This document shows positions 1 through 22,674 of a DNA stretch of 22,674 nucleotides, piece by piece. This DNA comes from an uncultured Deinococcales bacterium. Lineage in GTDB: Bacteria > Deinococcota > Deinococci > Deinococcales > JAAFIG01. A program made the translations under genes and the position numbers. The stretch covers positions 45,924-68,597 of the forward strand of contig CAXTTL010000003.1 in NCBI GenBank assembly GCA_964247135.1, read 5' to 3'. The notes beneath the pieces are model-generated. The model did no database searches, was not told the DNA's origin, and was given only the letters and a program-made list of their open reading frames with translations. Positions within the stretch are counted from its first letter, which is position 1. Each line of letters starts with the position of its first letter.

Positions 1-159
1 CCTCGAGTGGCTTGAAGGACGCGCCGCTCGAGCCACCCGCGCATGAATTCTTGGTATTTGACCCTGAACATTATCGGGAAATGCTTGAAGTTGCAGCCTT
101 GCACCTCGAATACCTCGAGCAAGTAGATGACACGTGCAGCCTTTTGATGCGCGACAGAC

Positions 160-165
160 TATAGT
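160..165 (+). promoter_or_regulatory. -10 box (TATAGT) of a putative leaderless transcript of the MalT-like gene
   Basis: TATAGT lies 6 nt (caaccc) before the ATG at 172. No SD sequence is visible. The same geometry recurs at four other genes in the window. Confidence 0.6.
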
Positions 166-171
166 CAACCC

Positions 172-2898
172 ATGAGCACCGCAGTTTTAGCCACCAAACT
201 GTACATCCCCCTGCCTCGAGCGCAACTTGTGCCGCGCCCTCGTCTGATTGAACGGCTGAACGAGGGGCTGCGCCGTAAACTGACCCTGATCTCTGCGCCC
301 GCCGGCTTTGGTAAAACCACGCTGGTCAGCGAATGGGTCGCCAATTGCAACAGACCTGTCGCTTGGCTGTCATTGGATCAAGGGGACAGTGATCCGACCC
401 GTTTTTTGACGTATCTCATCACGGCTTTGCAGGCGGTTGCGCCCAACATTGGGGAAGGCTTGCTGGGTGCGCTTCAATCCCCTCAGTCACCACCAACCGA
501 ATCGATCCTCACCGCGCTGCTCAACGTCATTGCCACCATCTCGGAGGACTTTGTTTTGGTGCTTGACGACTACCACTTGATCGATGCCAAACCAGTCGAT
601 CAGGCGCTCGGCTATTTGCTCGAGCACCTGCCAGCACAAATGCACTTGTTAATCACCACCCGTGAGGACCCCAATCTGGGGCTGGCTCGGTTGCGTTCCC
701 GCGATCAATTGACCGAATTTCGCGTGACAGACTTGCGTTTTATCCCTTCGGAAGCCGCCGAATTTCTTAATGCTGTGATGAATTTTAAGCTTTCAACCGA
801 AGAGGTTGCCGCTTTGGAAACCCGAACCGAAGGCTGGATTGCGGGTCTGCAATTGGCGGCACTCTCATTGCGGGGACATCAAGACGTTGCTGGATTCATT
901 CAAGCCTTCGCCGGAGACCACCGCTACATTGTCGATTACCTGGTCGAAGAGGTCTTGCAGCGCCAGCCCGAAGCGACCCGAAGCTTCCTGCTTCAGACCG
1001 CCATCTTAGATCGTTTGAATGGTGCGCTGTGCGATGCCGTTACCGGGCAGCCAGGCGGAAAAGCGCGACTCGAGACCTTGCAACGGGGCAATTTTTTTCT
1101 GATTCCGCTGGACGATAAACGCCACTGGTATCGTTATCACCATCTTTTTGCCGATGTGCTGCTGATGCACCTGAACTCGGAGCAGCCCGATCAGGTTTCT
1201 GCTCTGCATTCACGGGCGAGCTTATGGTTCGAGCAGAGCGGCTTGGTTGCCGATGCGATCCGGCACGCGCTGGCGGCTGAGGATTTCGAGCGGACGGCGG
1301 ACCTGATCGAACGGGCTGTGCCTGCCATGCGCCGAAGCAGACAGGAGTCCACGGTACTCGGCTGGCTCGAGCTGCTCCCCAAGGCACTCTTTGAGCGCAG
1401 ACCCGTGCTCAGCATTCACTTCGCTGGAACCTTGCTCTCGAGCGGCAAGTTCGAGGGTGTTGACGCTCGACTGCGCGATGCAGAACGCTGGCTGGACTCA
1501 AGAGCCGATATTGGCGAGCGACCACCATCGGCTGAGCTGGTCGTTGTGGATGAAGAGGAATTCCGCAGCTTGCCTGGTTCAATCGCCGTTTTCCGTGCCG
1601 CACATGCCCTGGCTTTGGGTCATGTGCTCCACAGTGTGAAACACGCTCAGCGGGCGCTTGATCTTTTGCCCGATGAAAACCATCACGGGCGCGGGGCTGC
1701 ATCGGGACTTTTGGGACTTACCTATTGGACGACTGGTGATCTCGAGGCGGCGCAACAATCGTATGCCGAATGTATGACCAGGTTGCTGAGGATTGGTCAC
1801 AACCCTGACGCGATTGGCATCAGCATTGCCTTGGCGGACATACGGATTGTGCAAGGTCGTCTGCTCGAGGCGATGAGACTCTATGAACGCGGACTGCAAC
1901 TTGCCACCGAGCAGGCTGGGCTGGCGTTGCGGGGCGCGGCAGACATGTATGTCGGGATGAGCGAACTGATGCGTGAGCACAACGATTTGAATGCCGCCAG
2001 GCAGCACCTCCTGAAAAGCCAGGAACTTGGGGAGTTCAATGGCTTACCGCAAAATCAGTATCGCTGGCGCGTGGCGATGGCTCGAGTACACGAAGCCCAG
2101 GGTGACTTGGAAGGCGCACTCGAGTTGCTCCTCGAGGCAGAGCGCTTTTATGTGAGTGATTTTTTTCCAAACGTGCGCCCTGTTGCCGCCTTGAAGACAC
2201 GGATTTGGCTCGCGCAAGGCAGGTTGGGAGATGCCCTCAGTTGGGTACGTGAGCAGCACCTGTACGCTCAGGACGACCTGAGTTATCTGCACGAGTTTGA
2301 ACACATCACCCTGGCGCGGGTGCTTTTGGCTGACCGATCCACCCTTGACGCAATGCAACTGCTCGAGCGTCTCCTGAGCGCAGCACAAGAGGGCGGAAGG
2401 ATGGGCAGCGTCATCGAAATCCTGGTCTTGCAGGGGCTTGCTTTTCAGGCACAAAACAACCTGCCCGCCGCGCTCGAGGCTTTACAGCAAGCCTTGACGC
2501 TGGCGGAACCTGAAGGCTACATCCGCATGTTCCTGGATGAAGGCGCACCAATGTTGGAACTGCTGCACGAAGTTGCCGTACACAAGATCGTGCCAAACTA
2601 TACGGGCAGGCTGCTGGCAGAATTTGAAGTGGAGCAACAAAACGCAGGCGATCCTCTCACTCCGAACTTGCACGGGCAAGCGTCCCATGCCTTACAGCCG
2701 CCGCTCGAGACTCTGAGTCAGCGCGAGCTTCAAGTGCTGCGCTTGCTTAAAACCGAATTGAACGGACCGGAAATGGCGCACGAACTCAGGGTGTCCTTGA
2801 ACACCTTGCATACGCACACCAAAAACATTTACAGCAAGCTCGGGGTCAACAAACGTCGGGCGGCGGTTCGCCGCGCCGAAGAACTCGAGTTGTTGTAG
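172..2898 (+). CDS. MalT-like ATP-dependent LuxR-family transcriptional regulator (STAND ATPase, TPR-like sensor, C-terminal LuxR HTH)
   Basis: 908 aa. N-terminal TKL..P...LVPRPRL motif, Walker A APAGFGKTT, Walker B LVLDDYH, TEGWIAGLQL and YRYHHLF motifs. C-terminal LSQRELQVLRLL...TLHTHTKNIYSKLGV. Confidence 0.95.
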   Translation: MSTAVLATKLYIPLPRAQLVPRPRLIERLNEGLRRKLTLISAPAGFGKTTLVSEWVANCNRPVAWLSLDQGDSDPTRFLTYLITALQAVAPNIGEGLLGALQSPQSPPTESILTALLNVIATISEDFVLVLDDYHLIDAKPVDQALGYLLEHLPAQMHLLITTREDPNLGLARLRSRDQLTEFRVTDLRFIPSEAAEFLNAVMNFKLSTEEVAALETRTEGWIAGLQLAALSLRGHQDVAGFIQAFAGDHRYIVDYLVEEVLQRQPEATRSFLLQTAILDRLNGALCDAVTGQPGGKARLETLQRGNFFLIPLDDKRHWYRYHHLFADVLLMHLNSEQPDQVSALHSRASLWFEQSGLVADAIRHALAAEDFERTADLIERAVPAMRRSRQESTVLGWLELLPKALFERRPVLSIHFAGTLLSSGKFEGVDARLRDAERWLDSRADIGERPPSAELVVVDEEEFRSLPGSIAVFRAAHALALGHVLHSVKHAQRALDLLPDENHHGRGAASGLLGLTYWTTGDLEAAQQSYAECMTRLLRIGHNPDAIGISIALADIRIVQGRLLEAMRLYERGLQLATEQAGLALRGAADMYVGMSELMREHNDLNAARQHLLKSQELGEFNGLPQNQYRWRVAMARVHEAQGDLEGALELLLEAERFYVSDFFPNVRPVAALKTRIWLAQGRLGDALSWVREQHLYAQDDLSYLHEFEHITLARVLLADRSTLDAMQLLERLLSAAQEGGRMGSVIEILVLQGLAFQAQNNLPAALEALQQALTLAEPEGYIRMFLDEGAPMLELLHEVAVHKIVPNYTGRLLAEFEVEQQNAGDPLTPNLHGQASHALQPPLETLSQRELQVLRLLKTELNGPEMAHELRVSLNTLHTHTKNIYSKLGVNKRRAAVRRAEELELL

Positions 2899-2960
2899 CA
2901 AAGCCGTAAATACCAACCCTCAGGGCTTTTTCCAACCTTCAGCACCTCCTGATGAAGCTC

Positions 2961-2991
2961 TCACCACAAGTGGTGATGACAGCTCACCACA
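2961..2991. promoter_or_regulatory. Putative operator: TCACCAC-aa-GTGGTGA palindrome plus a third TCACCAC half-site, upstream of a TACCTT -10-like box (3000-3005)
   Basis: Perfect 7-bp inverted repeat at 2961-2976 and an extra TCACCAC at 2984-2990. It lies between the regulator and the downstream gene cluster. Confidence 0.6.
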
Positions 2992-3078
2992 TTCGCTTGT
3001 ACCTTCTGATTCAAGAAAGGAACGCATGGCAACGAGGTGGAGATTCATCCATTAAAAGGAACATGCACAAGGTGCGGC

Positions 3079-3390: not shown

Positions 3391-3416
3391 ACATCAATCA
3401 CCAGAAGGAGAGCAAC

Positions 3417-4097: not shown

Positions 4098-4130
4098 TCT
4101 GATTCAGTGTGCTGGAAACGGCATCAAGCG

Positions 4131-5307: not shown

Positions 5308-8181
5308 TTAGGGTTTTGACATTCTGGATGCTGGGATCAGTGCCACATCAGTTGTCTCGAGCGCAAACTTGACGGCTTCCTCAAGTTCCATCAACCTGCC
5401 CTCTTGCCAGGCTGATTGAAAACCCGCTTCGTCCATTTGAGATTTGGCTCGAGCCACAAACCGTTCTTGGCGAGCTTGCCAGGAGGCGATCATCGGAGAA
5501 TGGATTTCCTCGCGTAGCCGATCTGACACGCCCCACAAACGAGCGGCACGCCTGGCATCGTTGTGCTCCAGCGCCAGGCTGGCAAAATTCTCGAGTGAAA
5601 AGGTCATGCCCCAACGGTCATTTTGGGCATGGCGGTACTCGAGAACCTGACAAGCCAACTTCCGTGCCGTGTTCAGGTCGCCCAAATCGAGCGTGACGAC
5701 GCTCAGGTTGTCTTTGGCGAGGACAACCAAGAACAAGTTGTGTAAGTTTGCAGCCACCACAATCGCCTCTTCCAATTGGGTTTTTGCTGCCCTCAAGTCG
5801 CCCCGCAGCCAGGCGATATAGCCAAGGTTGCTGAGGTTGAGCGCATGGTCGGCGGTTTGATGCCGACCCAGCTTGCGCAGCAGGCTCAAACTTTCTTGGA
5901 ACAGTGTCCAGGCTTGATCGATGTTGCCAGAACCTTCGGCTAAACTTCCCAGCACAACCAAGGCTACGGCAACAAGCTCATCATCGCCCAGCTTCCGCGC
6001 CAGCCCCAGACCCGCCTCGGCATGGTTTTTGCCGCCTTCAATGTCGCCTTGAAGGCTCGCTTCGTGCGCCAAAAGTACGTAGCTTCTGATCGCAACCGCC
6101 TCGAGTCCCAGAGAGTCGGCAAGGGACAGTGCCTCTTGTCCGTACATGACCGCCAAAGCGCGGTCGCTTTGCCTTGACATGATCCGTCCAGCGTTCAGCA
6201 GCGCCCGCGCCCGTTCCTCGGTTGGCGCGGCTGCCCCAGGCTGCGACAGCAGTGTGGTGAACCAGTGTCTGCCCTCGCTGACATAACCCTGTGTCTCCCA
6301 AAAGGGTGCGAGGGTATTCGCCAGACGCAGACTGAACATGACCTCATGGCGCTCGAGCGACCACGCCAGTGCCGCCAGTGCGTTTTGATGCTCCGCCTTG
6401 CAGCATCTGATGTGTGTTTCTACTCCAATCTTCTGACTGGTTTCGATCAAGTCCAAAATGCAGTGTACATGTTTGGTTCTGGTTTCTTGCTCTGCACTTG
6501 GCTCGAGTTTTTCACTGGCGAACTGGTGCAGCAGGGCATGGAAGTCATAACGACCCTCGAGGTTGAGCCGCAACAGGGATTTGTCCACCAATGAGGTCAG
6601 CAGCGGAATGGTGGCTTCTGCGACCACACTGGCGGCTTCGCGGCTAAAGCCACCGACAAACACCGAGAGCTTGGCGAGGACGGTTTGCTCTTTGGGTTTC
6701 AGCAAGTTCCAGGAATACTCAAACACCGCCCTTAAACTTTGGTGCCGCTCGAGCATATTTCGAGAGGGCGACTCGAGTCCGTCCAAGATTTTGGCGATGT
6801 CCCCTGCCAGATCAGCCATCGACAATGACCGCAACCACACCGCCGCAAGTTCAATCCCCAAGGGCGAACCGGCGACAAATTTGCAAATGCTCAACACGTG
6901 CGGCAGGGTTTCAACACTCAGGGCAAACTCGAGCCGCGCACGCTTGGCACGCTGCACAAAAAGTTTGACCGCATCGTTGTACTCGAGTGCTGCAAGCTCG
7001 AGGCGGTCGGTACCAGGAAGTGGCAAACCCTCGAGACTGAGCACAAATTCTTCCTCGAGGTTGAGCCGTTCCCTCGAGGTGACCACGATGCTCAAGTTGG
7101 CACAAACCTCGAGCAATTCTGAGACCATCAACGCCCCGTCCATCAGGTGCTCGAAGTTGTCCAGCACCAGCAACAGGCGCTTGTGACCGATCCAAGTTTT
7201 CACGGCAGCCAGGGCATCGTCCTTGACCTTGATCCCCAGGCTTTGCGCCAGCGCCAGCGGAATCTGATCGGCTTCGCTCAAGGCGTCCAGAGCAACGAAG
7301 TAGATGCCGTCGCGGAAATTGGTCTCAAACAGTTGCCCCATTGCCAGTTGCAACGCCAAACGGGTCTTGCCGATGCCGCCCGACCCCAGCAGGGTGATCA
7401 ATCGCACGCCTGGTTGAGCGATCATCTGCCCCAATTCGACCAGTTCGGAGTCGCGCCCAATAAACGAGGTCTTGGGACGCGGCAGGTTGTTGGCAACGGC
7501 TTGCACCTCAAAACTGCCCTCAGAGGTTTCTTTGAAGTAGCGACCTCGAGCATCGTCTGGGCTGAGGTTCAACTCGAGGTCGTATTCTGCCGCCTGTTTT
7601 CTGACCTCCGCCGCCAGGATGCTGTTCCCAGCCACCAGCAAGGGATACAGTCGCTCGAGGTCTTCTGGATCGTGGTTGTGCCGCCCAATCTGATAAGCTT
7701 GTTCAGCCCAGCGCAGGCTGAGATCAAACGCACCCCTGGCAGCCTCGAGTTCAGCTTCCCGAATGAACGCGCCGCGCACCCTGGCAGCCATAAATTCCCT
7801 GGTGCTGCCCACCCACTCCTCGAGTTCGACACCCCAATCGGGCAAGGAAAATTCGGTCAGAAAGCCGCCCTGGTACAGCTCTGCGACCCGTTCAGTCTCT
7901 TGATTGGCGAGGGCGGTCTGCAAGGCGGCAACGTCGCTCTCGACCTGTGTGCCGACGGTGCGCTCATCGCTCGAGAGCAATTCGGGACTGACCTCACGCA
8001 GCAGCTTGCTCACCACCCGCAAACTGTTGGCAGGATTGGCAGCATCCGACCAGAACAGTTCGTATAAATGTCGTTTCTCTTTTGCCCCTTCCACCGCCAG
8101 GTACGCCAGCAGCAACAAAGGTTTGGGGCGGCTGAAGTCGCTTGGCTCGAGGGTCAAGCCCCCCAGGGTTTTCAGGTGCAT
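5308..8181 (-). CDS. AfsR/SARP-like STAND regulator: N-terminal wHTH/BTAD-like region, NB-ARC-like ATPase, TPR repeats
   Basis: 957 aa. N-terminal LKTLGGLTLE...KPLLLLAYLA...LFW, then NNLP...TSFIGR, Walker A GSGGIGKTR, Walker B LLVLDNFEH, TSRERL, GSPLGIELAA and C-terminal TPR-like helices. Confidence 0.92.
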   Translation of the reverse strand: MHLKTLGGLTLEPSDFSRPKPLLLLAYLAVEGAKEKRHLYELFWSDAANPANSLRVVSKLLREVSPELLSSDERTVGTQVESDVAALQTALANQETERVAELYQGGFLTEFSLPDWGVELEEWVGSTREFMAARVRGAFIREAELEAARGAFDLSLRWAEQAYQIGRHNHDPEDLERLYPLLVAGNSILAAEVRKQAAEYDLELNLSPDDARGRYFKETSEGSFEVQAVANNLPRPKTSFIGRDSELVELGQMIAQPGVRLITLLGSGGIGKTRLALQLAMGQLFETNFRDGIYFVALDALSEADQIPLALAQSLGIKVKDDALAAVKTWIGHKRLLLVLDNFEHLMDGALMVSELLEVCANLSIVVTSRERLNLEEEFVLSLEGLPLPGTDRLELAALEYNDAVKLFVQRAKRARLEFALSVETLPHVLSICKFVAGSPLGIELAAVWLRSLSMADLAGDIAKILDGLESPSRNMLERHQSLRAVFEYSWNLLKPKEQTVLAKLSVFVGGFSREAASVVAEATIPLLTSLVDKSLLRLNLEGRYDFHALLHQFASEKLEPSAEQETRTKHVHCILDLIETSQKIGVETHIRCCKAEHQNALAALAWSLERHEVMFSLRLANTLAPFWETQGYVSEGRHWFTTLLSQPGAAAPTEERARALLNAGRIMSRQSDRALAVMYGQEALSLADSLGLEAVAIRSYVLLAHEASLQGDIEGGKNHAEAGLGLARKLGDDELVAVALVVLGSLAEGSGNIDQAWTLFQESLSLLRKLGRHQTADHALNLSNLGYIAWLRGDLRAAKTQLEEAIVVAANLHNLFLVVLAKDNLSVVTLDLGDLNTARKLACQVLEYRHAQNDRWGMTFSLENFASLALEHNDARRAARLWGVSDRLREEIHSPMIASWQARQERFVARAKSQMDEAGFQSAWQEGRLMELEEAVKFALETTDVALIPASRMSKP

Positions 8182-8681: not shown

Positions 8682-8754
8682 TTTTTGCCGTCCTCGAGCC
8701 TACAGCGCCCCCAGGCTCGAGATCATTAGCACCTGATTGCAGCGCTCGAGCCGT

Positions 8755-8788
8755 GATCACGCTTTGATAATGCCCCCTCTTTTAAGCT
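8755..8788 (+). promoter_or_regulatory. Putative activator-dependent promoter, copy 2 (GATCACG-N4-GATAATG, N10, TAAGCT)
   Basis: Near-identical to copy 1. It lies about 50 nt upstream of the lipoprotein ATG. Confidence 0.6.
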
Positions 8789-8835
8789 GGCTGCACTTCG
8801 GGTTAAAGCGCCCGACAGAACCTAAGGAGAACACC

Positions 8836-10198: not shown

Positions 10199-10229
10199 CG
10201 CTCGAGATTCCGTGTTGGAATCTCGAGCG
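10199..10229. terminator. 13-bp stem-loop, possible terminator
   Basis: CGCTCGAGATTCC-gtgtt-GGAATCTCGAGCG, 40 nt after the lipoprotein stop. The U-tract is weak on + and slightly better on -. Confidence 0.5.
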
Positions 10230-10329
10230 CCAATATATTTGGTGTAGATCAAACGATGTCTCGAGATTGGAGCATTGTGTTGCCAAAACGGTACTCGAGT
10301 CTTGTGGAATTTACGATGACTGGTGGGAG

Positions 10330-10335
10330 TAGAAT
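10330..10335 (+). promoter_or_regulatory. -10 box (TAGAAT) of a putative leaderless aldo/keto reductase transcript
   Basis: TAGAAT-ttcgtc-ATG, 6-nt spacer. Confidence 0.6.
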
Positions 10336-10341
10336 TTCGTC

Positions 10342-11361: not shown

Positions 11362-11364
11362 TAC

Positions 11365-11961: not shown

Positions 11962-11983
11962 GAATCAATAGTAGCTCGAGCGT

Positions 11984-13021: not shown

Positions 13022-13028
13022 AAAAACC

Positions 13029-14417: not shown

Positions 14418-14423
14418 ATTCAA

Positions 14424-15695
14424 TTACTCCGTGGGTTTTAAGCTGCTGAAATTGCAAACGCGCACGTCCAAACCGCCTTGGGTGACGTGACTGGTATCAA
14501 ACTCGAGATCACCCAAACCGTTGCGGAAACAGCGCCATAAAACATCAGACGGGCAGAGGCAAAACCCGATCAACGCCCCGCCAGATTCTCGAGCTTCAAG
14601 CGCCCATTCTTGAACCTTTAAACCCAAATCGGTGAACAGTTTTTCGACATCGGTTTCTTGAGAAAGCCGCAAACCATACGGCGGATGAAGCGGCATCAAA
14701 TTCATTTCTCGGGGTTTGATGATTTCAGTGTTTGGAACCTGAAAAACATCTTTTAAAAGCGCCGAGATTCTGGGCAGTCGCAAGCCAAAATCCTCGAGTT
14801 TTTCAGTCACGTTTTCAAGATTTTGCTCGAGTTCATGAAATTGCTTGCGGTTGTTTTCGATGAAAGTGAGTTCTGGGAGTTCGGCTTCGCTGGCAGCCCT
14901 GGTGATGCGCTTGTCCCACCAGTTTTGGGCGGCTTCGGTTGGATGTGCAAGATGCTGCCAAGCTCGAGGGACATCCCAAATGCTGGGCGGCAAACCAAAC
15001 AGCGAATGCCACGCTTCAACGCCCAAGGTTCCACTGCCCGCGAACGGCACAACCACGCTCGAGGCTTCCAAAGCTCGAGGCTCGAAGGCTGTAAGGCGTT
15101 TTAAGACCGCGCTCGCCAAATCCTCCCGCAACGTTGCGGGCGTGCCCGTCAAAGCCCGCCAGCCGCGTTTGTGCAGCGCGTCAGACCCCAAACTCACCCG
15201 AACCCGCAACCGATCTGCACCACTCTCAAGTTCGATGCGGGTCAATTGGCTGTCTCGAGCGTCATCCTCGAGCAAAATCGTGTACCCGCGCACGCTGAAA
15301 AATTCTTCGGCAATCTCTTGCAAACGCCCCGCATGAGGTAGCACACCACTTGCCGCTTCGCTGCGAACCTCGAGCGTACAACCAGGCTCGAGCAAATCTT
15401 TGAACGGTAATTTCCCAAGTGCGAGCGGAACATCCGACCAGGATTTGGCGGTTACCGACAAGAACGCCAAGCACAAATCATGCACCGTGCTGAGACGCGC
15501 CGCGAGTTCGCACGCCAATTCCCAGGAGGCGTTGCGCACCCGCACAAAACCTCGAGCCTGTTCGACGCTGGCAGCGAATTTATGCGGTTTCCAAGGTTGG
15601 GCAATGATGGCACTCGCGTCAGCCGCGACTTCGGGCAGTGTTCCAGGCGAACCGTACAACTCGAGCGTTAAAGGTCTGGAGGTGATGACGTTCAT
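14424..15695 (-). CDS. Divergent THUMP-domain / RlmL-like SAM-dependent RNA methyltransferase
   Basis: LHKRGWR...ATLREDLASAVL, VPFAGSGTLGVEA (SAM motif I) and HPPYGLRL (NPPY-like). Leaderless-type TAGGCT box at 15703-15708. Confidence 0.75.
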   Translation of the reverse strand: MNVITSRPLTLELYGSPGTLPEVAADASAIIAQPWKPHKFAASVEQARGFVRVRNASWELACELAARLSTVHDLCLAFLSVTAKSWSDVPLALGKLPFKDLLEPGCTLEVRSEAASGVLPHAGRLQEIAEEFFSVRGYTILLEDDARDSQLTRIELESGADRLRVRVSLGSDALHKRGWRALTGTPATLREDLASAVLKRLTAFEPRALEASSVVVPFAGSGTLGVEAWHSLFGLPPSIWDVPRAWQHLAHPTEAAQNWWDKRITRAASEAELPELTFIENNRKQFHELEQNLENVTEKLEDFGLRLPRISALLKDVFQVPNTEIIKPREMNLMPLHPPYGLRLSQETDVEKLFTDLGLKVQEWALEARESGGALIGFCLCPSDVLWRCFRNGLGDLEFDTSHVTQGGLDVRVCNFSSLKPTE

Positions 15696-15925
15696 GGCTC
15701 AGAGCCTACCGCGTTTGCCCCTAAGACAAAATGAAATCAAGCTCAAAGCTGACAATTTGCTCGAGCGAAACCTGCTTCTTCAACTTCTTCATCTCGAGTG
15801 TTGTTCTCGGCACGCCGCAAAAACCCGAGTGTTGCGTGGCAATAGGCTTGCTCGGTTGCGGCAAACACAAATTCCTTCAATCGGAACACGTTTTGACTTG
15901 ATCCACGCCAAGCTGGTGGCAAGCT

Positions 15926-16840
15926 TCAGATTCTGCCACCAAACGATCCTTCGTGTCTCGAGATAAACGCATTCAAGACCCGTTGGTACTCGGTTACCTC
16001 TTCGACATGGGCGGTGTGCGAACTGTTCTCGAACAAAACCCACTCTGAGCCAGCGATGCCGTCATGAACGGTTTGCGCGATCAGGGGCGTTGCCTCGTCG
16101 TACTTGCCCGAGGTCACCAAGGTCGGCGCGTTGATCTTGCCAAGTTGCGCCGTGATGTCCCAGTTTTTGAGCGTGCCGATCACATGAAATTCGCTGGGTC
16201 CGTTCATGGTGTTGTAAACCTCGGGGTTGGCTGCCAGTTTGGCAAAACTGCGCTGGACATCATCTGGATTTGGCACGATCCGGCAGACGTGACGGTTGTA
16301 AAACTCGGTCATGGCGGCAAGGTATTCCGGCGAATCGGTCGTGCCGGCGGCTTCCTGCTCGAGCAGCACCGCATTGATTTGGCTTGGAAGTTCTTGGCGC
16401 AGCTTGTTGGCTTCCTGAACCCACTGCACCATGCTGGCGGGAGAACTGGCAACCGTCAGGCTGGCAACGCCAAGGGGACGGCGAATCATGTATTCCATCG
16501 CCAACATCCCGCCCCACGATTGCCCGAGCAAATGGATGCGCTCGAGTCCGAGTGCCTTTCGGACGGCATCGATTTCCTCGAGGTACAATTCAACCGTCCA
16601 CAGTTCTGGCTTGGAAACATCGAGGCTCGATAAGCCGCAACCGAGTTGATCGTAGAAAATCACGCGCCGCCCCGTGTCCGCCATGCCAGCAAGCGACCAG
16701 AGGTAATCGTGGCAAGCCCCAGGTCCGCCGTGCAACAAGAGCAGCGGCAGCTTGCCTGGGTCTTCCCCAGTGCCGACGATTTTGTACCAGGTTTTATAGC
16801 CTTTGAAGGGGATGTAACCTTCGGTGCTGGCTTGGGTCAT
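15926..16840 (-). CDS. pip: Proline iminopeptidase / L-amino acid amidase family alpha/beta hydrolase (peptidase S33)
   Basis: LHGGPG, FYDQLGCG, GQSWGG nucleophile elbow, MNGPSEF, G.YDEATP and SSHTAH. AAGGA SD. Confidence 0.92.
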   Translation of the reverse strand: MTQASTEGYIPFKGYKTWYKIVGTGEDPGKLPLLLLHGGPGACHDYLWSLAGMADTGRRVIFYDQLGCGLSSLDVSKPELWTVELYLEEIDAVRKALGLERIHLLGQSWGGMLAMEYMIRRPLGVASLTVASSPASMVQWVQEANKLRQELPSQINAVLLEQEAAGTTDSPEYLAAMTEFYNRHVCRIVPNPDDVQRSFAKLAANPEVYNTMNGPSEFHVIGTLKNWDITAQLGKINAPTLVTSGKYDEATPLIAQTVHDGIAGSEWVLFENSSHTAHVEEVTEYQRVLNAFISRHEGSFGGRI

Positions 16841-16877
16841 GGGTCATCCTTTCATGGTTTCTCGAGCAAGTGCAAAT

Positions 16878-17888
16878 TCAAGTTGAACTCGAGGGTTCGT
16901 ACAAAAAACAGGCGCTCTGATGACCTTCCAAACCCCGAGCCTCGAGCTTGGGCACTTCGCGGGTGCAGCGCTCGAACGCCCTTGGGCAGCGCGGGTGAAA
17001 GGCGCAGCCTGTCGGCGGATTGAGCGGGCTGGGCAGTTCGCCGTGCACCGCCTCGAGCGTGGTTTTTCGGCTCGGGTCGAGGTCGGGCGCAGCTCGCAGC
17101 AACGCCTGGGTGTACGGGTGCTCGGGGCTGGTGAAGAGTTTTTCGGTGCTCGAGAGTTCGACGATTCGCCCCAGGTACATCACGGCGACACGGTGCGAAA
17201 TGTGGCGCACCAGCCGCAAATCGTGCGCGACAAACATCACGGTCAAATGCAGGCGCTCTTGCAGCTCGAGCAACAAATTCACGACCTGGGCTTGAACGCT
17301 GACATCGAGCGCACTGACCAGTTCATCGGCAATCAAGGTTTCGGGTTCGACCGAGAGCGCCCGAGCGATGCCGATGCGTTGACGTTGACCGCCAGAAAAC
17401 TCGTGCGGCAAGCGTTCGGCGGCATCTTTGGGCAAACCGACCAAATCGAGCAATTCATTGATCCGATCTGGAATCTCGCGGCTCGAGCGCAATTGATGCA
17501 CCGACAATGCCTCGCGCAAAACCTGCCCAACCGTCATGCGTGGGTTGAGGCTCGAGAAGGGGTCTTGAAACACCATCTGCACGCGGCGGTTGTAATTGCG
17601 CAACGCCAGCCCGCGCAAATCCAGCACGTTTTTGCCGTCATACTCGAGCGTCCCCGAGTCGGCATCGTAGAGCCTGACCAGACAGCGGGCGAGGGTGCTT
17701 TTGCCGCAACCCGACTCGCCGACGATGCCGAGCGTCTCGCCGCGCAAGAGGTCGAGGCTGACCCCAGTTAAGGCTTTGACCGATTTTGCTGGCAGACCAC
17801 GCACACGATCTAGCCCCGAGGAAGGCACGGGAAAGGTCTTGGTCAGGTCGCGCACCCGCATGATTGGGGTGTGGTCACTTGGCTTCAC
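16878..17888 (-). CDS. Oligopeptide/dipeptide ABC transporter ATP-binding subunit (OppF/DppF-like)
   Basis: GESGCGKST, FSGGQRQRI, IADE and a C-terminal GC.FHPRC domain. GTG start overlaps the upstream stop. Confidence 0.95.
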   Translation of the reverse strand: MKPSDHTPIMRVRDLTKTFPVPSSGLDRVRGLPAKSVKALTGVSLDLLRGETLGIVGESGCGKSTLARCLVRLYDADSGTLEYDGKNVLDLRGLALRNYNRRVQMVFQDPFSSLNPRMTVGQVLREALSVHQLRSSREIPDRINELLDLVGLPKDAAERLPHEFSGGQRQRIGIARALSVEPETLIADELVSALDVSVQAQVVNLLLELQERLHLTVMFVAHDLRLVRHISHRVAVMYLGRIVELSSTEKLFTSPEHPYTQALLRAAPDLDPSRKTTLEAVHGELPSPLNPPTGCAFHPRCPRAFERCTREVPKLEARGLEGHQSACFLYEPSSST

Positions 17889-18904
17889 GGCTGCACCTCG
17901 AGTGCCGCTTGGGCGCTCACAGGTTCGAGCTGGTCAAAATGAATGCAGGCTGACAAGCGTGTGCTCGAGATGGCTTGGAGGGCAGGTCGCTCGAGTGTGC
18001 ATTCAGGCGTGACATAGCCGCAACGCGGGGCGAACGGGCAACCAGGTGGCAGCTTGGCGAGGTTGGGCGGTGCGCCCGGAATGGGAATCAACGGGCGGCG
18101 CGTGGCTTGTGCACCAGGCACAGAATTGAGCAGCCCGAGCGTGTAGGCGTGGCGCGGCTGGGCAAAGAGTTCGCTGGCGGGGGCAACCTCGACGATGCGA
18201 CCCGCGTACATCACCGCCACGCGGTCACAGGTCTGGGCAACCACGCCCAGGTCATGCGTGACCAAAATCACGCCCATGCCGAGCGTATCCTTCAGGCGCA
18301 GCAAGAGCTTGAGAATCTGATCCTGAATCGTGACATCGAGCGCGGTGGTCGGCTCGTCGGCGAGCAACAATTTGGGATTGGACGCCAGCGCAATGGCGAT
18401 CATGGCGCGTTGACGCATCCCGCCCGAAAATTGATGCGGAAAATCCTTCAGGCGCTCCTTGGGCGAGGGAATCCCGACCAGCTCGAGCAATTCGGTGGCT
18501 CGAGCCTTGCGGTCTTGGCTTGAAAGATTGGTGTGCTCTTGCAAGGTTTCGCCGATCTGCTCACCAATGTTCAGCACCGGATTGAGCGCGGTCATCGGTT
18601 CTTGGAAGATCATGCTGATCTCGCCGCCGCGCACCTTGCGAAGGCGTGATTCAGGCAACTCGAGCAAGTTGGTGCCGCGCCACAGCACCGTGCCAGAAAT
18701 TTTCCCAGGCGGGCGCACCAGCCGCAAGATCGAGCGCAAGGTGACGCTTTTGCCCGAACCGGACTCGCCGACCAAGCCCAGCACCTCGCCCTCCTGCAAG
18801 CTCAGGTTGACACCATCCACCGCCGTCAACACCCCTCGAGCCGTGTGAAAGACCGTGCGCAGGTCACGCAACTCGAGCAGGGTATTTGCAGTCTGAGTGT
18901 TCAT
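17885..18904 (-). CDS. Oligopeptide/dipeptide ABC transporter ATP-binding subunit (OppD/DppD-like)
   Basis: GESGSGKS, FQEPMTALNP, FSGGMRQR, LADEPTTALD and GCPFAPRC. Confidence 0.95.
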   Translation of the reverse strand: MNTQTANTLLELRDLRTVFHTARGVLTAVDGVNLSLQEGEVLGLVGESGSGKSVTLRSILRLVRPPGKISGTVLWRGTNLLELPESRLRKVRGGEISMIFQEPMTALNPVLNIGEQIGETLQEHTNLSSQDRKARATELLELVGIPSPKERLKDFPHQFSGGMRQRAMIAIALASNPKLLLADEPTTALDVTIQDQILKLLLRLKDTLGMGVILVTHDLGVVAQTCDRVAVMYAGRIVEVAPASELFAQPRHAYTLGLLNSVPGAQATRRPLIPIPGAPPNLAKLPPGCPFAPRCGYVTPECTLERPALQAISSTRLSACIHFDQLEPVSAQAALEVQP

Positions 18905-19749
18905 CCTTTGGGTCTCAAGAGGTCTGCCAGACCATCACCGAGCAGGCTAAAACCGATGCCTGCCACCGTGATTGCCAAGCCAGGAAAGGTCGAAATCCAC
19001 CAGGCGGTGGTCATGAAGTTCTTGCCATCGGCAATGATCACGCCCCATTCGGCGGTGGGTGGTTGTGCGCCCAAACCCAGATAACCCAGGCTCGAGCCAA
19101 GCAGAATGCCGAGCGCCATGTCGGTCATCCAGTAGACCACAGCGGGCGTGATGGCGTTGGGCAAAAGGTGGCGAAAAATAATTCTCGAGGGGGTGTAGCC
19201 CATGACGCGCCCAGCCAGGGCGTACTCGGCTTTTTTCTGGGTGAGAATTTCGCCGCGCACCAAACGCCCGTAGGTGATCCAACCCACCGCGCTGACGGCG
19301 ATGAACATGTTGTTCAAGCCTGGTCCCAAGAGCGCCACAATCGCAATCACCAGCACCAGAAATGGAAAGGTGACCACGATGTCCACAATGCGCCCAAAAA
19401 TCGCATCCAGCCAGCGCCCGTAATAACCCGTCATCGCGCCGACCAACGTGCCAAAAACAAAAGGGAACAGGGTTGTAAAGAGGGCAATCTGCATGTCCAC
19501 CTGTGCGCCCCAAATGACCCTCGAGAGCACATCGCGCCCGAAGTTATCGGTGCCAAACCAGTGCTTGATCGACGGGGCTTGCAGCACCGCCTGATAATCA
19601 AAATTGGTCGGGCTGTACGGCGCAACCCACTGCGGCACGAGCGCCATCACGACCAGTGACCCAATGATAACGATGCCAGCGATCAAGCTCGGCTTCAAGC
19701 GCACCCGAGGGCGACTCGAGGTTTGTGCGACCAGACTTGGCGCAGCCAT
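18901..19749 (-). CDS. Peptide ABC transporter permease (OppC/DppC-like)
   Basis: HWFGTDNFGRDVLSR, EAA-like loop EYALAGRVMG, RHLLPNA and LGLGAQPPTAEWG. Confidence 0.95.
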   Translation of the reverse strand: MAAPSLVAQTSSRPRVRLKPSLIAGIVIIGSLVVMALVPQWVAPYSPTNFDYQAVLQAPSIKHWFGTDNFGRDVLSRVIWGAQVDMQIALFTTLFPFVFGTLVGAMTGYYGRWLDAIFGRIVDIVVTFPFLVLVIAIVALLGPGLNNMFIAVSAVGWITYGRLVRGEILTQKKAEYALAGRVMGYTPSRIIFRHLLPNAITPAVVYWMTDMALGILLGSSLGYLGLGAQPPTAEWGVIIADGKNFMTTAWWISTFPGLAITVAGIGFSLLGDGLADLLRPKG

Positions 19750-19774
19750 CAGTTTAACCTCTGGCTCGAGCGCT

Positions 19775-20716
19775 TCATGCGACTTCCACCCGAGGGTCGA
19801 GTTGGGCGTGAACGATGTCGGTCAGGATAAACGTCAGTGACACCAGCACCGCAAAGGTCAGCGTCAAGCCCTGAATCACGGGGTAATCGCGTCCAAAAAT
19901 CGAATCGACCATCAGACGCCCAACCCCAGGAATCGCAAACACGCTCTCGGTGATGACCGCCCCGCCGATCAAACCGCCGATGTTCAAACCGAACAGCGTC
20001 ACCGTCGAGATCACCGCATTTCTGAGGACATGCTTTCCCAAGATCAAACTCGAGCGCAAGCCTTTTGCCCGCGCAAAATCCACGTACTCGGATTGCAGCA
20101 CCTCGAGAATCGCCGCCCGCAAATTGCGCATCAGGATGGCGGCGAGGTTAAAACCAAGCGTTAACGCAGGCAAAAACAGATACCACAAATGCTCGAGGAA
20201 GGTCTCGCCGTAACCACCGATGGGGAACAAGCGCCAACGTGCGCCGAGGATGGTCAAGAGTTGCAAACCGATGTAAAACACGGGCATCGACAGACCAATC
20301 TGAAACACGCCACGGATCGCCGTATCGATGGCAGTATCGCGTCGCAACGCCGCCACAAAAGAAAGCGGCACCGCCAACAAGACCGCCAGCACACTGGCAT
20401 AAAGCGTCAAAAACAAGGTCACGGGCATCCGCTCGAGGATCAAACGAAAAACCGGCACCTTCAAGTTGATCGAATCGCCAAGATCGCCCTGAAAAAAATG
20501 CCCGACAAAAACCCCGAATTGTACCACCAGCGGCTTATCCAAGCCCAGTTCTTTGTTGGCTCGAGCGATCATCGCTTCGGTGGCGCGTTCGCCCAGAATC
20601 GCGCTGGTGGGATCGCCTGGCAGCAGTCGCACCATGAAGAACACCAGTGCCATCACCACAAAAAATGTGGGGATCACCTGGAGCACGCGCACAATGATGT
20701 ACGACCAACGGTTCAT
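19775..20716 (-). CDS. Peptide ABC transporter permease (OppB/DppB-like)
   Basis: LLPGDP, LGLDKP, GDLGDS, EYVDFARAKGL, ITESVFAIPGVG and RDYPVIQG. Confidence 0.95.
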   Translation of the reverse strand: MNRWSYIIVRVLQVIPTFFVVMALVFFMVRLLPGDPTSAILGERATEAMIARANKELGLDKPLVVQFGVFVGHFFQGDLGDSINLKVPVFRLILERMPVTLFLTLYASVLAVLLAVPLSFVAALRRDTAIDTAIRGVFQIGLSMPVFYIGLQLLTILGARWRLFPIGGYGETFLEHLWYLFLPALTLGFNLAAILMRNLRAAILEVLQSEYVDFARAKGLRSSLILGKHVLRNAVISTVTLFGLNIGGLIGGAVITESVFAIPGVGRLMVDSIFGRDYPVIQGLTLTFAVLVSLTFILTDIVHAQLDPRVEVA

Positions 20717-20801
20717 TCAAAATTCCTTGGCTCGAGTTTGAGGAGAAAGGTTGCATTCATGGTTTCTCTTTAGATACGACGATTAACGATTATCCGCGCC
20801 A

Positions 20802-20920
20802 CCCTCATCCCCAACCCTTCTCCCGCTAGCGGGAGAAGGGAGCTTGGCTCTTTTACACGTGTGGCTCAAGGGATTTCCTTCTCCCTGCGGGAGAAGGTGG
20901 CGCGTAGCGCCGGATGAGGG
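20802..20920. repeat. REP-like composite palindromic element (two inverted CCCTCATCC...CCTTCTCCC/GGGAGAAGG units)
   Basis: Outer inverted repeat CCCTCATCC (20802) / GGATGAGGG (20912). Perfect 26-bp palindrome at 20815-20840. Further hairpins at 20877-20897 and 20899-20911. Confidence 0.8.
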
Positions 20921-20981
20921 CTTCAAGCGAGTCATCCAATACCCCATTTGCTTTTGCATCGGGAGTTTTGATCCTCGAGCT

Positions 20982-22550
20982 TCACTTCTCGAGATACGCA
21001 GCGCCAAAGATATTCACGCCCAGCGGGGTTTGCACAAAATCCCGCACTTTTTTCGAGATCGCCACGGCAAAAGGTTGCTCGTACAGGAAGATCATCGGGG
21101 CGGCTTCAGTGTGAATTTTTTGAATTAGGGCGTAGAGGGCGGCGCGTTTGGCGGGGTTGGTTTCTTGTTGACTTTGGGTGAAAGCTTTTTCGACTGCATC
21201 GCTTTTGAAACCTGTTTTGAACGATTCAGCACTCTCGAACACGGCGGCGTAGGCGGTCAATTCGTTGGGGTCGGCGATGTCGTCGGTCCAGTAGTTGACC
21301 TGCATTTGAAAGTCGGTGTCTTGATAGCGTTTGTTGGTGGTGGCGCTGTCAAATTGTTCAATCTTGAGTTTGACCCCAATGGCATCCCACATCTGTTGCA
21401 GTGCGGTGGTCAGCGCGATCTGGTCGGCGCTGCCAGCAACAATCTGCACCGAAATCTCCGTGCCTGGGGCAACGCCAGATTCGGCAAACAGGGCTTTGGC
21501 TTTCTCGAGGTTGAACGGGTACATCGCTTGGGGTGCGAACAGTGGTGTGCTCGAGGAGAGATACGAGCGCATGGGTTTGCCCAGCCCGAAGGTCACGAGT
21601 TTGATCAAAGCTCCCTTGTCGGTGGCGTAATTCAGGGCTTGGCGCAATTTGAGGTTGGCAAGCGGGTTGTCTGTACCGTCTTTTAGTTTGGGGCGGTTGT
21701 TCATGACGATAAAATTGACTCGCGTCGAGGGGAAGAGTTTCATGTTGATTTTGGGGTCGGCTTGCAGCTCATTAACCCGAGCGAAGGGGATAAATTCCGC
21801 GCCGTCCAGTTCGCCAGATTGCAATTTTAAAATGCGGGCGTTGTCATCGGGAACGATTTCAAAACGCACCGTCTCGAGGTAAGGCAGCGGCTTGCCATCC
21901 GCCCCTTTGCGCCAGTAGTTGGGGTTGCGTTTCAAGGTCATGCTCGAGCCGCGTTTCCATTCTTGGAGCAAAAATGGTCCTGTGCCGATGGGTTTCTCGG
22001 CAAAGGCTTTGGCTCGAGCCTTCTCGTCCGCGCCCTTTGCCGCGCCGTACAATTTTTTCGGCAGAATCGCGCTGTTAAACGTGGCGAGGGCGGCAGGCAG
22101 GCTTGGGTCGGTGTTTTTCAGGGCAAGCACAACTTGATTGCCGCTGGCTTTGACGCTCGAGATAGAACCGAGCAAGAAGTTCCATGCGCCGTTGTCGGGG
22201 TTTCTGGCGCGATCCAAGGAAAACTTCACGTCCTCGGCGGTCACGGCGGTGCCATCCGAGAATTTCACGCCCGGGCGCAAGGTCAGTGTAAAGGTTTTGC
22301 CGTCCTTGCTAAAGCCCCACTGGCTCGCCAGCCCTGGTACAAGTCCTTTGCTGCCCGTCTGAATCAGGGTTTCGTAGATGTTTTGCAAAATCCAGATGTC
22401 CAAATTGGCATCGGTGAACACGGGGTCAAGAAACAAGGAATCGGCGTAACGCCCATACGTCAGTGTGCCGCCTCGAGTCGGACCTTGCGCGTCGCTGACA
22501 CCCAAAAAGACCATCCCGACCACCAGCAAAGCCCCAAACCAATTTCGCAT
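20982..22550 (-). CDS. Peptide ABC transporter substrate-binding protein (family 5, OppA/DppA-like)
   Basis: GGAGG SD before ATG 22550. Cleavable signal peptide with no lipobox. Motifs IYETL, PGLASQW, LRPGVKFSDG.AVTAEDVKFS, PIGTGPF and RNPNYW. Confidence 0.95.
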   Translation of the reverse strand: MRNWFGALLVVGMVFLGVSDAQGPTRGGTLTYGRYADSLFLDPVFTDANLDIWILQNIYETLIQTGSKGLVPGLASQWGFSKDGKTFTLTLRPGVKFSDGTAVTAEDVKFSLDRARNPDNGAWNFLLGSISSVKASGNQVVLALKNTDPSLPAALATFNSAILPKKLYGAAKGADEKARAKAFAEKPIGTGPFLLQEWKRGSSMTLKRNPNYWRKGADGKPLPYLETVRFEIVPDDNARILKLQSGELDGAEFIPFARVNELQADPKINMKLFPSTRVNFIVMNNRPKLKDGTDNPLANLKLRQALNYATDKGALIKLVTFGLGKPMRSYLSSSTPLFAPQAMYPFNLEKAKALFAESGVAPGTEISVQIVAGSADQIALTTALQQMWDAIGVKLKIEQFDSATTNKRYQDTDFQMQVNYWTDDIADPNELTAYAAVFESAESFKTGFKSDAVEKAFTQSQQETNPAKRAALYALIQKIHTEAAPMIFLYEQPFAVAISKKVRDFVQTPLGVNIFGAAYLEK

Positions 22551-22674
22551 GACCAACCTCCAGATCGGCAACACTCGAGCAACAATTTTGTTTCTTACAG
22601 CAGCCTCTGAGATCGCACTAAAAGTATGTTGACCCTCGAGAAATAAAAATCATTCCTTCAAAGACTGTAGGGTG

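Follow-up and report, generated by a model that had tools for sequence, protein, structure and literature searches.

The window analysed here, a stretch of 22,674 nucleotides, contains 151 exact copies of the palindrome CTCGAG, which corresponds to one per 150 bp or 6.66 per kb, compared to approximately 6.7 copies predicted for the whole window from base composition. A first-pass annotation had arrived by hand at about 150 sites, one per 150 bp, with about 7 expected, and both figures were essentially right. The features relevant to the analysis are the following.

1-22674, no strand: all 151 CTCGAG sites, sampling locally a palindrome that is iterated throughout the genome
215-220, plus strand: phase-1 site, translated as CCT CGA GCG (Pro-Arg-Ala)
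1437-1442, plus strand: phase-2 site, translated as CTC TCG AGC (Leu-Ser-Ser)
1741-1746, plus strand: phase-0 site, translated as CTC GAG (Leu-Glu), inside a MalT-like regulator gene (172-2898, assigned by Pfam)
10199-10229, plus strand: hairpin (13-bp stem without mismatches, 5-nt loop), starting 41 nt past the stop of gene 8737-10158
10260-10299, no strand: two more intergenic sites, at 10260 and 10294, in the same 183-bp spacer as the hairpin
14424-15695: the only methyltransferase-like gene of the window, folding like THUMP-type RNA methyltransferases (RlmL, Trm14)
16878-22574, minus strand: five-gene peptide ABC-transporter operon with 33 CTCGAG inside its genes, used for the orthologue comparison

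Shuffling the window with preservation of dinucleotides gave a mean of 5.46 sites (sd 2.31, largest value 11), and none of the 100 shuffles reached 151. The same was seen throughout the assembly (5.09 Mb in 386 contigs, 84% complete), where 33,925 CTCGAG were found compared to 1,371 expected, a 24.7-fold excess that makes it the commonest hexamer, while the runner-up palindrome is only 3.7-fold enriched. Every 5-kb window of the genome (825/825) contains at least 8 copies. The description of CTCGAG as a highly iterated palindrome thus holds, and an enrichment limited to the window, which the first-pass annotation had named as grounds for giving the idea up, was not what the genome displayed. 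The iterated unit is a bare six-base word and no part of a longer repeat: its flanks show no more than a slight bias (G at -1 in 39%, C at +1 in 38%), and the top 12-mer containing it has 109 copies among the 33,925 sites, so that no conserved unit beyond the core, with copies related by descent as in REP or MITE elements, is present. The inner TCGA is without enrichment outside the hexamer (20,685 observed compared to 19,771 expected for TCGA overall), and the one-mismatch neighbours of CTCGAG occur at 0.5-1.8 times expectation, those containing CTAG excepted.

Within the window, 75, 22 and 29 sites lie in coding phases 0, 1 and 2, respectively, and 25 more lie in or at the edge of the 2,393 non-coding bases; the three codon examples singled out earlier, at 1741, 215 and 1437, were all exact. 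Genome-wide, coding DNA holds 28,497 CTCGAG, compared to 3,952 ± 30 in within-gene synonymous shuffles (7.2-fold) and 1,666 ± 25 in codon-order shuffles (17-fold; ten shuffles each). The enrichment accordingly did not disappear when codon usage and dipeptide content were controlled for; its disappearance would have been a refutation by the terms of the first-pass annotation. All three phases contributed, with 17,787, 4,182 and 6,528 sites compared to 3,102, 289 and 561 under the protein-preserving shuffles, that is, excesses of 5.7-, 14.5- and 11.6-fold, respectively. Phase 0, which encodes Leu-Glu, accounts for 62% of coding sites. Intergenic DNA is even denser in CTCGAG than coding DNA (7.29 and 6.57 per kb, respectively), with a 33-fold excess at 47% GC. 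The imprint on the proteome is considerable: 77% of the 23,088 Leu-Glu pairs are written as CTCGAG, and Leu-Glu is the most over-used dipeptide, with an observed/expected ratio (O/E) of 2.34 compared to 1.01 for Glu-Leu. By that ratio, roughly 13,000 extra Leu-Glu pairs are present in one proteome. CTCGAG is favoured so strongly that codon use has been shifted and thousands of extra Leu-Glu pairs have been created.

The conservation of sites among orthologues of relatives, a comparison that the first-pass annotation had called for, was assessed on one 12-kb stretch of the window against five genomes of the same genus, which were pooled and are not independent of one another. CTCGAG was kept at 219 of 268 positions (81.7%), compared to 13,030 of 30,851 (42.2%) for other hexamers and 41% for GC-matched ones. 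Third codon positions were identical in 90.2% of cases inside the sites and 69.6% outside, and the codons CTC, GAG, CGA and TCG were kept at frequencies of 0.88, 0.88, 0.79 and 0.87 inside the word but only 0.40, 0.60, 0.42 and 0.66 outside it. Among close relatives the word is hence kept far better than neighbouring synonymous positions. Differences between same-genus genomes went in both directions (49 and 46) and were mostly single transitions, with gaps involved in 3 of the 49 sites differing in a same-genus relative. At family distance, in the single-contig relative G011, 8 of 31 sites were kept compared to 18% of other hexamers, and third-position identity was 0.48 inside the sites and 0.51 outside; at this distance there is little or no excess conservation, and sites turn over. 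CTCGAG thus arises through point substitution, both between genes and in all reading frames, and given more time it disappears from some positions and reappears at others.

The peptide ABC-transporter operon allowed the same question to be addressed against Deinococcus, whose syntenic operons contain no CTCGAG in D. deserti and one in D. peraridilitoris. Out of 15 Leu-Glu sites in the operon, Leu-Glu is found in only 3 (D. deserti) and 2 (D. peraridilitoris), and at the phase-1 and phase-2 sites identical residues were kept in only 4 of 18 cases. When a window protein was compared with plasmids, the best 9 of at least 5,000 matching records were Deinococcus megaplasmids, on which the five-gene operon is also present. 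The iteration can therefore be placed outside cyanobacteria, as proposed earlier, because the closest orthologues listed are on Deinococcus plasmids. The assignment to relatives of Deinococcus draws on these plasmid matches and on the composition of the phylum sample; ribosomal protein L2 is absent from the assembly, and the matches listed for the conserved ABC ATPase among genome contigs came from unrelated phyla.

Between genes, the sites at 10201, 10222, 10260 and 10294 do lie, as the first-pass annotation had it, in the spacer separating genes 8737-10158 and 10342-11361. The first two pair mutually in the stem of the hairpin, and for the 183-nt spacer a folding energy of -58.8 kcal/mol (z = -3.5) was obtained. 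In the genome as a whole, stems of at least 10 bp take in 172 of 1,342 close intergenic pairs, compared to 138 of 7,125 coding pairs; since the 172 intergenic pairs comprise only about 6% of intergenic sites, hairpins were discarded as the cause of the iteration. The spacing of sites is itself structured. At 6-12 bp from a site the chance of meeting the next one is 1.7 per kb, and by 90-200 bp it has reached 8.3-8.5 per kb; the coefficient of variation of spacing is 0.96, compared to 1.07-1.13 for four other abundant hexamers. The neighbourhood of an existing copy, out to about 60-90 bp, is thus unfavourable for a new CTCGAG. The longest CTCGAG-free stretch of the genome is 2.6 kb, and 85 gaps exceed 1 kb, the longest of which are mostly 27-45% GC (40 of the 85 listed). 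Among the six restriction-modification modules, densities of 4.7-7.9 sites per kb were found in five, and the sixth, at 39% GC, has 0.6. Resident DNA of every kind is saturated with CTCGAG, and the AT-rich stretches poor in it are probably recent arrivals.

The trait extends beyond this genome, being found in all 18 family relatives searched, one of them a single-contig assembly. Some lineages neighbouring the family are intermediate in density, while a Deinococcus-like genus is depleted, at 0.01-0.2 sites per kb. In the same phylum sample, moderately rich genera with genomes of 2.4-5.4 Mb have 2-3.5 sites per kb before any correction for codon use. The genome G253, separately rich, reaches 7.0 sites per kb, and G197, for which G253 is the nearest among four genomes compared, has 0.2-0.3 per kb at equal GC; G196 also counts among the rich genomes. 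The genome-wide extent implied by the earlier proposal is borne out, and the word is iterated across the clade as well. Viral contigs were considered as a test of amelioration and abandoned. At least 120 stretches contained three close sites, and the densest of those listed were of high GC with GAGCTC also common; several high-GC viral contigs hold 3-7 CTCGAG per kb, and of seven tested for similarity to this genome none was similar. A single run of public reads was found, kept as contigs and with 0.10 of the sampled words.

DNA methyltransferases were surveyed in the genome with five Pfam families, searches from which specificity is not predictable. Six small type II methyltransferases were found, each of them (6/6) beside a restriction enzyme of a family fitting an avoided palindrome, the partners being of PvuII, SacI, MvaI/BcnI, NotI, NgoPII and Eco29kI type. 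The remaining matches were type I enzymes, two MmeI-like enzymes and weak or truncated PF01555 hits, and one reading frame of 1,502 residues matched the Eco57I and N6_Mtase families. Within these five families, this 84%-complete genome yielded no unpaired small methyltransferase. Nor was a methyltransferase common to the clade found, as each of the eight profiled has close orthologues in at most 6 of the 18 family relatives. G011 has no PF01555 match, and its only C5 enzyme is without a close orthologue (best 38%). Vsr gave no match in the genome, and neither did the XhoI nuclease (PF04555), a weak negative given that the family control matched in no genome. The orphan CTCGAG methyltransferase suggested by the first-pass annotation thus received no support, and the search it had recommended for a methyltransferase lacking a cognate endonuclease returned none among the six small type II enzymes.

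Individual enzymes were also set aside as a common cause. The PvuII-type and MvaI/BcnI-type methyltransferases adjoin their nucleases and are without clade-wide close orthologues, the NgoPII-type and Eco29kI-type C5 enzymes are likewise paired and not clade-wide, and the SacI-type D12 enzyme has close orthologues (76-93%) in just 6 of 18 family relatives. A weak 479-residue enzyme is broken by stop codons in several relatives, a TaqI-like enzyme is present in G007 only, enzymes of 507-538 residues look like type I HsdM, and the C5 enzyme of G011 fails on its lack of a close orthologue elsewhere. In the window, the family-specific gene 14424-15695 was rejected as a writer of CTCGAG, since its model (pLDDT 80.6) matches RlmL, SMU.472 and Trm14 over the full length; no responsible gene is evident there, as had been stated beforehand. 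A C5 methyltransferase conserved in g5, one genus of the family, is 74-84% identical in all four loci read and has no adjoining restriction enzyme in the two loci annotated. A 59% homologue occurs in G253, and the poor G197 is without any C5 enzyme.

Several other palindromes are strongly avoided in this genome: GAGCTC occurs 0 times, CAGCTG 15 times and GGCC 380 times, compared to an expectation about fifty-fold higher for the latter, and all four GRGCYC words are near zero. A mechanistic tie between the absence of GAGCTC and the richness in CTCGAG was rejected. GAGCTC is low in CTCGAG-poor genomes too and a SacI-type system is present; its absence is therefore ordinary restriction avoidance.

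Taken together, the data show CTCGAG to be a highly iterated palindrome of HIP type, carried by a family of uncultured bacteria related to Deinococcus. It behaves as HIP1 does: it is frame-independent, occurs both inside and outside coding DNA, spreads by substitution and is more conserved than the background. Of the interpretation given in the first-pass annotation, the likeness to HIP1, the genome-wide extent (here widened to the clade), the non-cyanobacterial host and the lack of an evident responsible gene in the window stand, while the orphan methyltransferase found no support. HIP1 (GCGATCGC) is similarly a palindrome rich in GC and over-represented by a factor of tens, which occurs in every frame as well as in non-coding DNA and spreads by substitution; its codons are more conserved inside the motif than outside, a test of Xu et al. 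2018 (PMC5861425) that was repeated here. This is not HIP1 proper, that is, GCGATCGC in a cyanobacterium: the word is different, has 6 bases instead of 8 and occurs in another phylum, CGATCG is found only 47 times (0.03 of expectation), and the best listed orthologues are from Deinococcus. CTCGAG is also denser, at 6,660 per Mb compared to 300-2,700 per Mb reported for HIP1 (PMC4390886), it has visibly changed protein sequences, and no clade-wide cognate methyltransferase was found for it. Moreover, one-off variants of HIP1 are biased to the outer bases, whereas the inner TCGA of CTCGAG is not enriched on its own. HIP1 is further reported to be distributed periodically on a 10-90 kb scale (PMC5861425); in this 386-contig assembly, spacing was analysed at short range. 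The alternate HIPs of single cyanobacteria (GCsGC, rCCGGy; Elhai 2015), among which GGGATCCC, TCGATCGA and CAGGCCTG have been described (PMC13756078), are likewise lineage-variable, short words of 5-6 bases, but the cases reported in PMC4390886 are all cyanobacterial and each has a matching methyltransferase. CTCGAG has 0 occurrences in the main text of that article, supplements apart, and in the literature, the supplementary tables of PMC4390886 and PMC5861425 aside, no published report of its hyper-iteration was found.

The account of the iteration favoured here, to which we give about even chances as a whole, is that CTCGAG serves as a 'self' word of HIP type and persists through biased fixation via a putative reader. 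Some DNA transaction that reads CTCGAG would give sites a fixation advantage, either through selection or through biased conversion. Somewhat more tentatively, the word may be a watermark of self that is read when kin DNA is taken up, spared or recombined, whereupon segments bearing sites would spread through the population by molecular drive, as with uptake sequences; such a reading would fit the part in transformation that has lately been proposed for HIP1. Given the palindromic form, the reader may be a dimer akin to a restriction enzyme or methyltransferase, and no candidate for this protein was identified.

The DUS of Neisseria and the USS of Haemophilus are short words enriched by drive in genes and spacers, with an imprint on peptides, and their inverted pairs form hairpins after genes. 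The 172 intergenic hairpins of CTCGAG are a further likeness. Uptake sequences are, however, asymmetric, 9-12 bases long and found about once per kb, with a known receptor or uptake bias, whereas CTCGAG is palindromic and has 6 bases. Against the watermark it also counts that a 6-bp word discriminates poorly, random DNA having one per 4 kb, that its density is several times that of known uptake sequences, and that being palindromic is what characterises the targets of methyltransferases and restriction enzymes. That the word could be kept without a dedicated methyltransferase, by new CTCGAG-reading machinery in DNA exchange or repair, is a doubtful proposition.

The strongest rival, which we regard as possible though improbable, is a methylation-directed repair ratchet as in Elhai's HIP model. 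A CTCGAG-specific, possibly orphan, methyltransferase would mark the word, and methyl-dependent mismatch or very-short-patch repair would turn near-sites into sites and protect existing ones; non-homologous methyltransferases may do so in different lineages. In E. coli, Dam/GATC with MutH and Dcm with Vsr very-short-patch repair show how a methylated palindrome becomes a genome-wide, even or slightly enriched signal. Their enrichment is modest, though, and a conserved orphan methyltransferase and a nicking enzyme are needed, neither of which was found in this genome. CTCGAG is a classical target of restriction-modification systems, among them those of XhoI and PaeR7I, but such systems have cognate enzymes and their sites are normally avoided, as CTCGAG is in the Deinococcus-like genus, while here the identical word is enriched 25-fold. 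CTCGAG is also given as the recognition word of the MamA-type system of M. smegmatis (PMC7526240), CTCGAG and TCGA are among the methylated motifs reported as common to one hot-spring genome group (bioRxiv 10.64898/2026.06.24.734251), and for every alternate cyanobacterial HIP a cognate methyltransferase was reported in PMC4390886, the class of enzyme differing in some cases. A signal that is required within a set distance would agree with the spacing pattern, and the conserved g5 C5 enzyme, with its homologue in G253 and none in G197, mildly favours methylation. The pairing of all six small methyltransferases with nucleases, the patchy distribution of the profiled enzymes, the lone C5 enzyme of G011, the missing Vsr and XhoI matches (the control for the latter matching nowhere) and the one-mismatch neighbours, which are not depleted, all argue against the ratchet.

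It appears unlikely that CTCGAG is bound by an abundant dimeric protein that structures the nucleoid or chromosome, the sites being kept by ordinary selection on compaction or segregation. The somewhat even spacing with its short-range repulsion, the uniform density across the 825 five-kb windows and the chromosome-architecture role argued for HIP1 (PMC5861425) agree with this, but the analysis yielded no candidate for such a protein, a structural role would hardly call for a site every 150 bp when thousands of amino acids have to change for it, and sister lineages manage without the iteration. More improbable still is that the word marks self DNA and protects it from a nuclease or defence system particular to the clade. 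Such a marker would work in the manner of Chi sites, which stop RecBCD/AddAB degradation, with the palindrome active in both orientations; the many defence genes, the extreme avoidance of other palindromes (GAGCTC, GGCC, CAGCTG) and the acquired AT-rich DNA without CTCGAG are in line with this, yet known Chi-type signals are asymmetric and strand-skewed, and no nuclease candidate was identified. An artefact of codon usage, dipeptide content, dispersed repeats or assembly, for which the predominance of Leu-Glu, the dense high-GC viral contigs and the common rise of CTCGAG along with GAGCTC through codon use in high-GC DNA might speak, is refuted by the protein-preserving shuffles in three phases, the intergenic excess, the near-random flanks, the absence of GAGCTC and the occurrence in 18/18 relatives, one of them single-contig.

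To our knowledge, HIP1 has been left unexplained for thirty years and studied in one phylum only, and CTCGAG provides a second HIP-type case that is denser, shorter and in another phylum. The graded spread, with a saturated family, intermediate neighbours and a depleted Deinococcus-like genus, together with a rich and a poor genome of equal GC, offers leverage that cyanobacteria lack for testing whether methylation is really required. If no methylase is involved, bacteria that exchange DNA naturally would have converged on 'watermark' palindromes, which would then be no peculiarity of cyanobacteria linked to orphan methylases. On that reading, the contrast between G253 (7 per kb) and G197 (0.2 per kb) would mean that a lineage can switch the system on or off, and the responsible gene would therefore be findable by subtraction. 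The case also shows the extent to which a drive at the DNA level can override protein coding, and iterated words of this kind distort k-mer-based binning and codon models.

Within the window, CTCGAG occurs 151 times, compared with 5.46 ± 2.31 (maximum 11) in 100 dinucleotide-preserving shuffles. The first-pass annotation had thus described a highly iterated word correctly, and the three codon-phase examples and the intergenic cluster that it named are all exact. The excess is genome-wide, as it had supposed: across the assembly (5.09 Mb in 386 contigs, with the window on contig 3; 52.7% GC, 84% completeness), 33,925 copies were counted, 24.7 times the 1,371 expected, and CTCGAG ranks as the commonest of all hexamers. 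The base following CTCGA is G in 33,925 of 38,651 cases. Since TCGA outside the hexamer is at its expected level, the flanking bases are only mildly biased, and analysis of flanks and neighbouring words in the genome revealed no longer repeat unit, CTCGAG is a bare six-base word.

Coding constraints were assessed on 4,307 genes, called with an ORF and codon-score method that reproduced the hand-made gene list of the window.

Coding CTCGAG: observed; protein-preserving synonymous shuffles; codon-order shuffles
Total: 28,497; 3,952 ± 30; 1,666 ± 25
Phase CTC-GAG: 17,787; 3,102; 1,198
Phase xCT-CGA-G: 4,182; 289; 155
Phase xxC-TCG-AG: 6,528; 561; 313

The excess therefore persists under both codon- and protein-preserving shuffles and reaches well beyond the window. 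Density is 7.29 per kb in intergenic DNA (47% GC, 33-fold excess) and 6.57 per kb in coding DNA. Leu-Glu is the most over-represented dipeptide in the called genes (O/E 2.34, compared with 1.01 for Glu-Leu), and 77% of Leu-Glu pairs are spelled CTCGAG; outside the sites, CTC makes up 15% of Leu codons and GAG 32% of Glu codons.

Conservation was followed by aligning window positions 10300-22674 to the syntenic loci of relatives. In the same-genus pool (five genomes, 83-89% identity), 219 of 268 sites were intact; the pooled figures for other hexamers and for GC-matched ones were 13,030 of 30,851 and 41%, respectively. Third codon positions were 90.2% identical within sites and 69.6% outside, and each of the four codons that build CTCGAG was far better kept within sites than outside, a control applied to HIP1, the highly iterated palindrome of cyanobacteria, in the available part of Xu et al. 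(PMC5861425). Differences within the genus run in both directions (49 vs 46) and are mostly single transitions. At family distance, in the single-contig relative G011, 8 of 31 sites were kept compared with 18% of other hexamers. As this positional excess fades, yet the family genomes are themselves rich in CTCGAG, the sites must turn over.

The octamer GCTCGAGC is present at 838-4,448 copies per genome in all 18 family relatives searched, spanning five genera. In a phylum sample of 251 genomes, every one from a single order, CTCGAG density is graded: 5.2-6.7 per kb in the six family genomes (source genome included), 7.0 in G253, a member of another family, 3.6 in the CTCGAG-rich G196, 2-3.5 in several genera with genomes of 2.4-5.4 Mb, and 0.01-0.2, under expectation, in a Deinococcus-looking genus of 92 species. 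Intermediate raw densities in high-GC lineages may partly be a codon effect. Among the matches listed, high-GC viral contigs of IMG/VR (L230, L270, L285 and others; 64-72% GC) also carry 3-7 CTCGAG per kb, and GAGCTC is common in several of them; their richness is an effect of codon use and warns against taking raw counts from lineages of high GC at face value. Composition is matched in the comparison of G253 with G197, a CTCGAG-poor genome. A 20-kb stretch of G197 matched G253 best among four genomes compared (45 matches, 66-74% nucleotide identity), and at the shared-gene loci (L290, L294 and L298 vs L161) CTCGAG density is 7.1 vs 0.2 per kb at a GC of 0.52 vs 0.51, a 35-fold difference between related genomes of equal GC.

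These results securely identify CTCGAG as a word of the HIP type: it arises by substitution, a site-specific fixation bias keeps it, and its sites turn over with time. The HIP1 likeness noted at first pass holds in all codon phases, in intergenic DNA and under the HIP1 codon control. No report of CTCGAG as an iterated palindrome was found in the literature searched, and the accessible portion of Elhai 2015 (PMC4390886) mentions neither CTCGAG nor Deinococcus. CTCGAG is among the methylated motifs of hot-spring genomes in the available part of a preprint (bioRxiv 10.64898/2026.06.24.734251). As for mechanism, we tentatively infer that CTCGAG could be a self watermark, which would be read during DNA exchange or sparing and would thereby lead to molecular drive.

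A methylation-directed repair ratchet would need a writer, and the first-pass annotation had proposed an orphan CTCGAG methyltransferase, an idea that gained no support from the searches made. Pfam searches of the source genome yielded a type I HsdM, a reading frame of 1,502 residues with matches to both the Eco57I and the N6_Mtase family, two MmeI-like enzymes, two C5 enzymes, a D12 enzyme and three N6/N4 enzymes of full length; one further N6/N4 match is weak and another truncated. All six small methyltransferases adjoin a nuclease: PvuII with a C protein (methyltransferase matching M.PvuII at 1.5e-149; CAGCTG, 15 copies), SacI-like (avoided word GAGCTC, 0 copies), MvaI/BcnI, NotI-like (a weak match), NgoPII (GGCC, 380 copies) and Eco29kI (CCGCGG, 11 copies). 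Many palindromes are avoided to an extreme degree; among them, each expected about 1,400-1,700 times, are GAGCTC (0), GGGCCC (1), CGGCCG (3), AGGCCT (4), CGTACG (5), GGATCC (7), CCGCGG (11), CAGCTG (15) and GCATGC (17); GGCC stands at 0.02 of expectation, and the four GRGCYC words are all near zero. Several of these fit the restriction-modification systems of the genome, which account for the avoidance and leave no small methyltransferase of the 84%-complete assembly over for CTCGAG. Vsr gave no match in the source genome, nor did the XhoI-nuclease family, whose control matched in no genome either. G011 carries type ISP-like and HsdM-like enzymes, a SacI-type D12 orthologue and one C5 enzyme, which adjoins an HD-CE protein and lacks a close orthologue elsewhere; a PF01555 search of its single contig gave no match.

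The ratchet is possible but unlikely: it is favoured by the palindromic form of CTCGAG and by a C5 enzyme conserved in g5, one genus of the family, with a 59% homologue in G253, whereas no methyltransferase common to the family was found, each of the eight profiled over 41 genomes having close orthologues in at most 6 of the 18 family relatives. The C5 enzyme, the one remaining lead for a writer, lacks an adjoining restriction enzyme in two annotated g5 loci and is followed by an HNH protein in G253, which has five C5 methyltransferases compared with none in G197. In g5 it is directly followed by an orthologue of a window gene:

14424-15695, minus strand, METHYLTRANSFERASE-like gene encoding a 423-residue THUMP/RlmL-like methyltransferase paralogue

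This gene was rejected as the CTCGAG writer because its signature motifs are those of THUMP-type RNA methyltransferases, which its model (pLDDT 80.6) also matches from end to end. An invariant HPPYG replaces the usual N/DPPY. Protein-level checks of six family genomes found an orthologue in each (50-63% identity), and same-genus relatives match at the DNA level; outside the family, 243 of the 245 other phylum-sample genomes gave no match at 1e-10 and two gave weak partial ones.

Sites in the genome lie on average 148 bp apart, and the CV of their spacing is 0.96, where other abundant hexamers give 1.07-1.13. Across the first 90 bp the chance of a next site climbs from 1.7 to about 8.4 per kb; past 300 bp it drops. 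In intergenic spacers, 172 of 1,342 close site pairs form perfect stems of at least 10 bp, including the window hairpin at 10199-10229. That the sites bind nucleoid proteins seems doubtful. CTCGAG-free gaps longer than 1 kb number 85, the longest being 2.6 kb; the longest 40 listed are mostly 27-45% GC, and such AT-rich gaps are probably acquired DNA. Restriction-modification modules are as saturated with CTCGAG as the rest of the genome, bar one at 39% GC. A role as protective marker is very improbable, and an artefactual origin of the excess scarcely credible.

The word also affects proteins. The five-gene peptide-transporter operon of the window, syntenic on the megaplasmids of Deinococcus deserti and D. 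peraridilitoris, contains 33 CTCGAG, compared with 0 and 1 in the respective orthologous operons. Its 15 Leu-Glu sites correspond to Leu-Glu at just 3 and 2 of the Deinococcus positions, and at the 18 sites in other phases the residues are unchanged in the orthologues at only 4. Other features of the window are as follows:

172-2898, plus strand, large STAND-type regulator, a MalT-like AAA-TPR-LuxR protein, ordinary
5308-8181, minus strand, large STAND-type regulator, an NB-ARC/NACHT-TPR protein, ordinary
about 20795-20915, spacer between permease and binding-protein genes, REP-like element of inverted GC-rich hairpins without CTCGAG

The REP-like element has 67 BLAST matches in the source genome and many in same-genus relatives.
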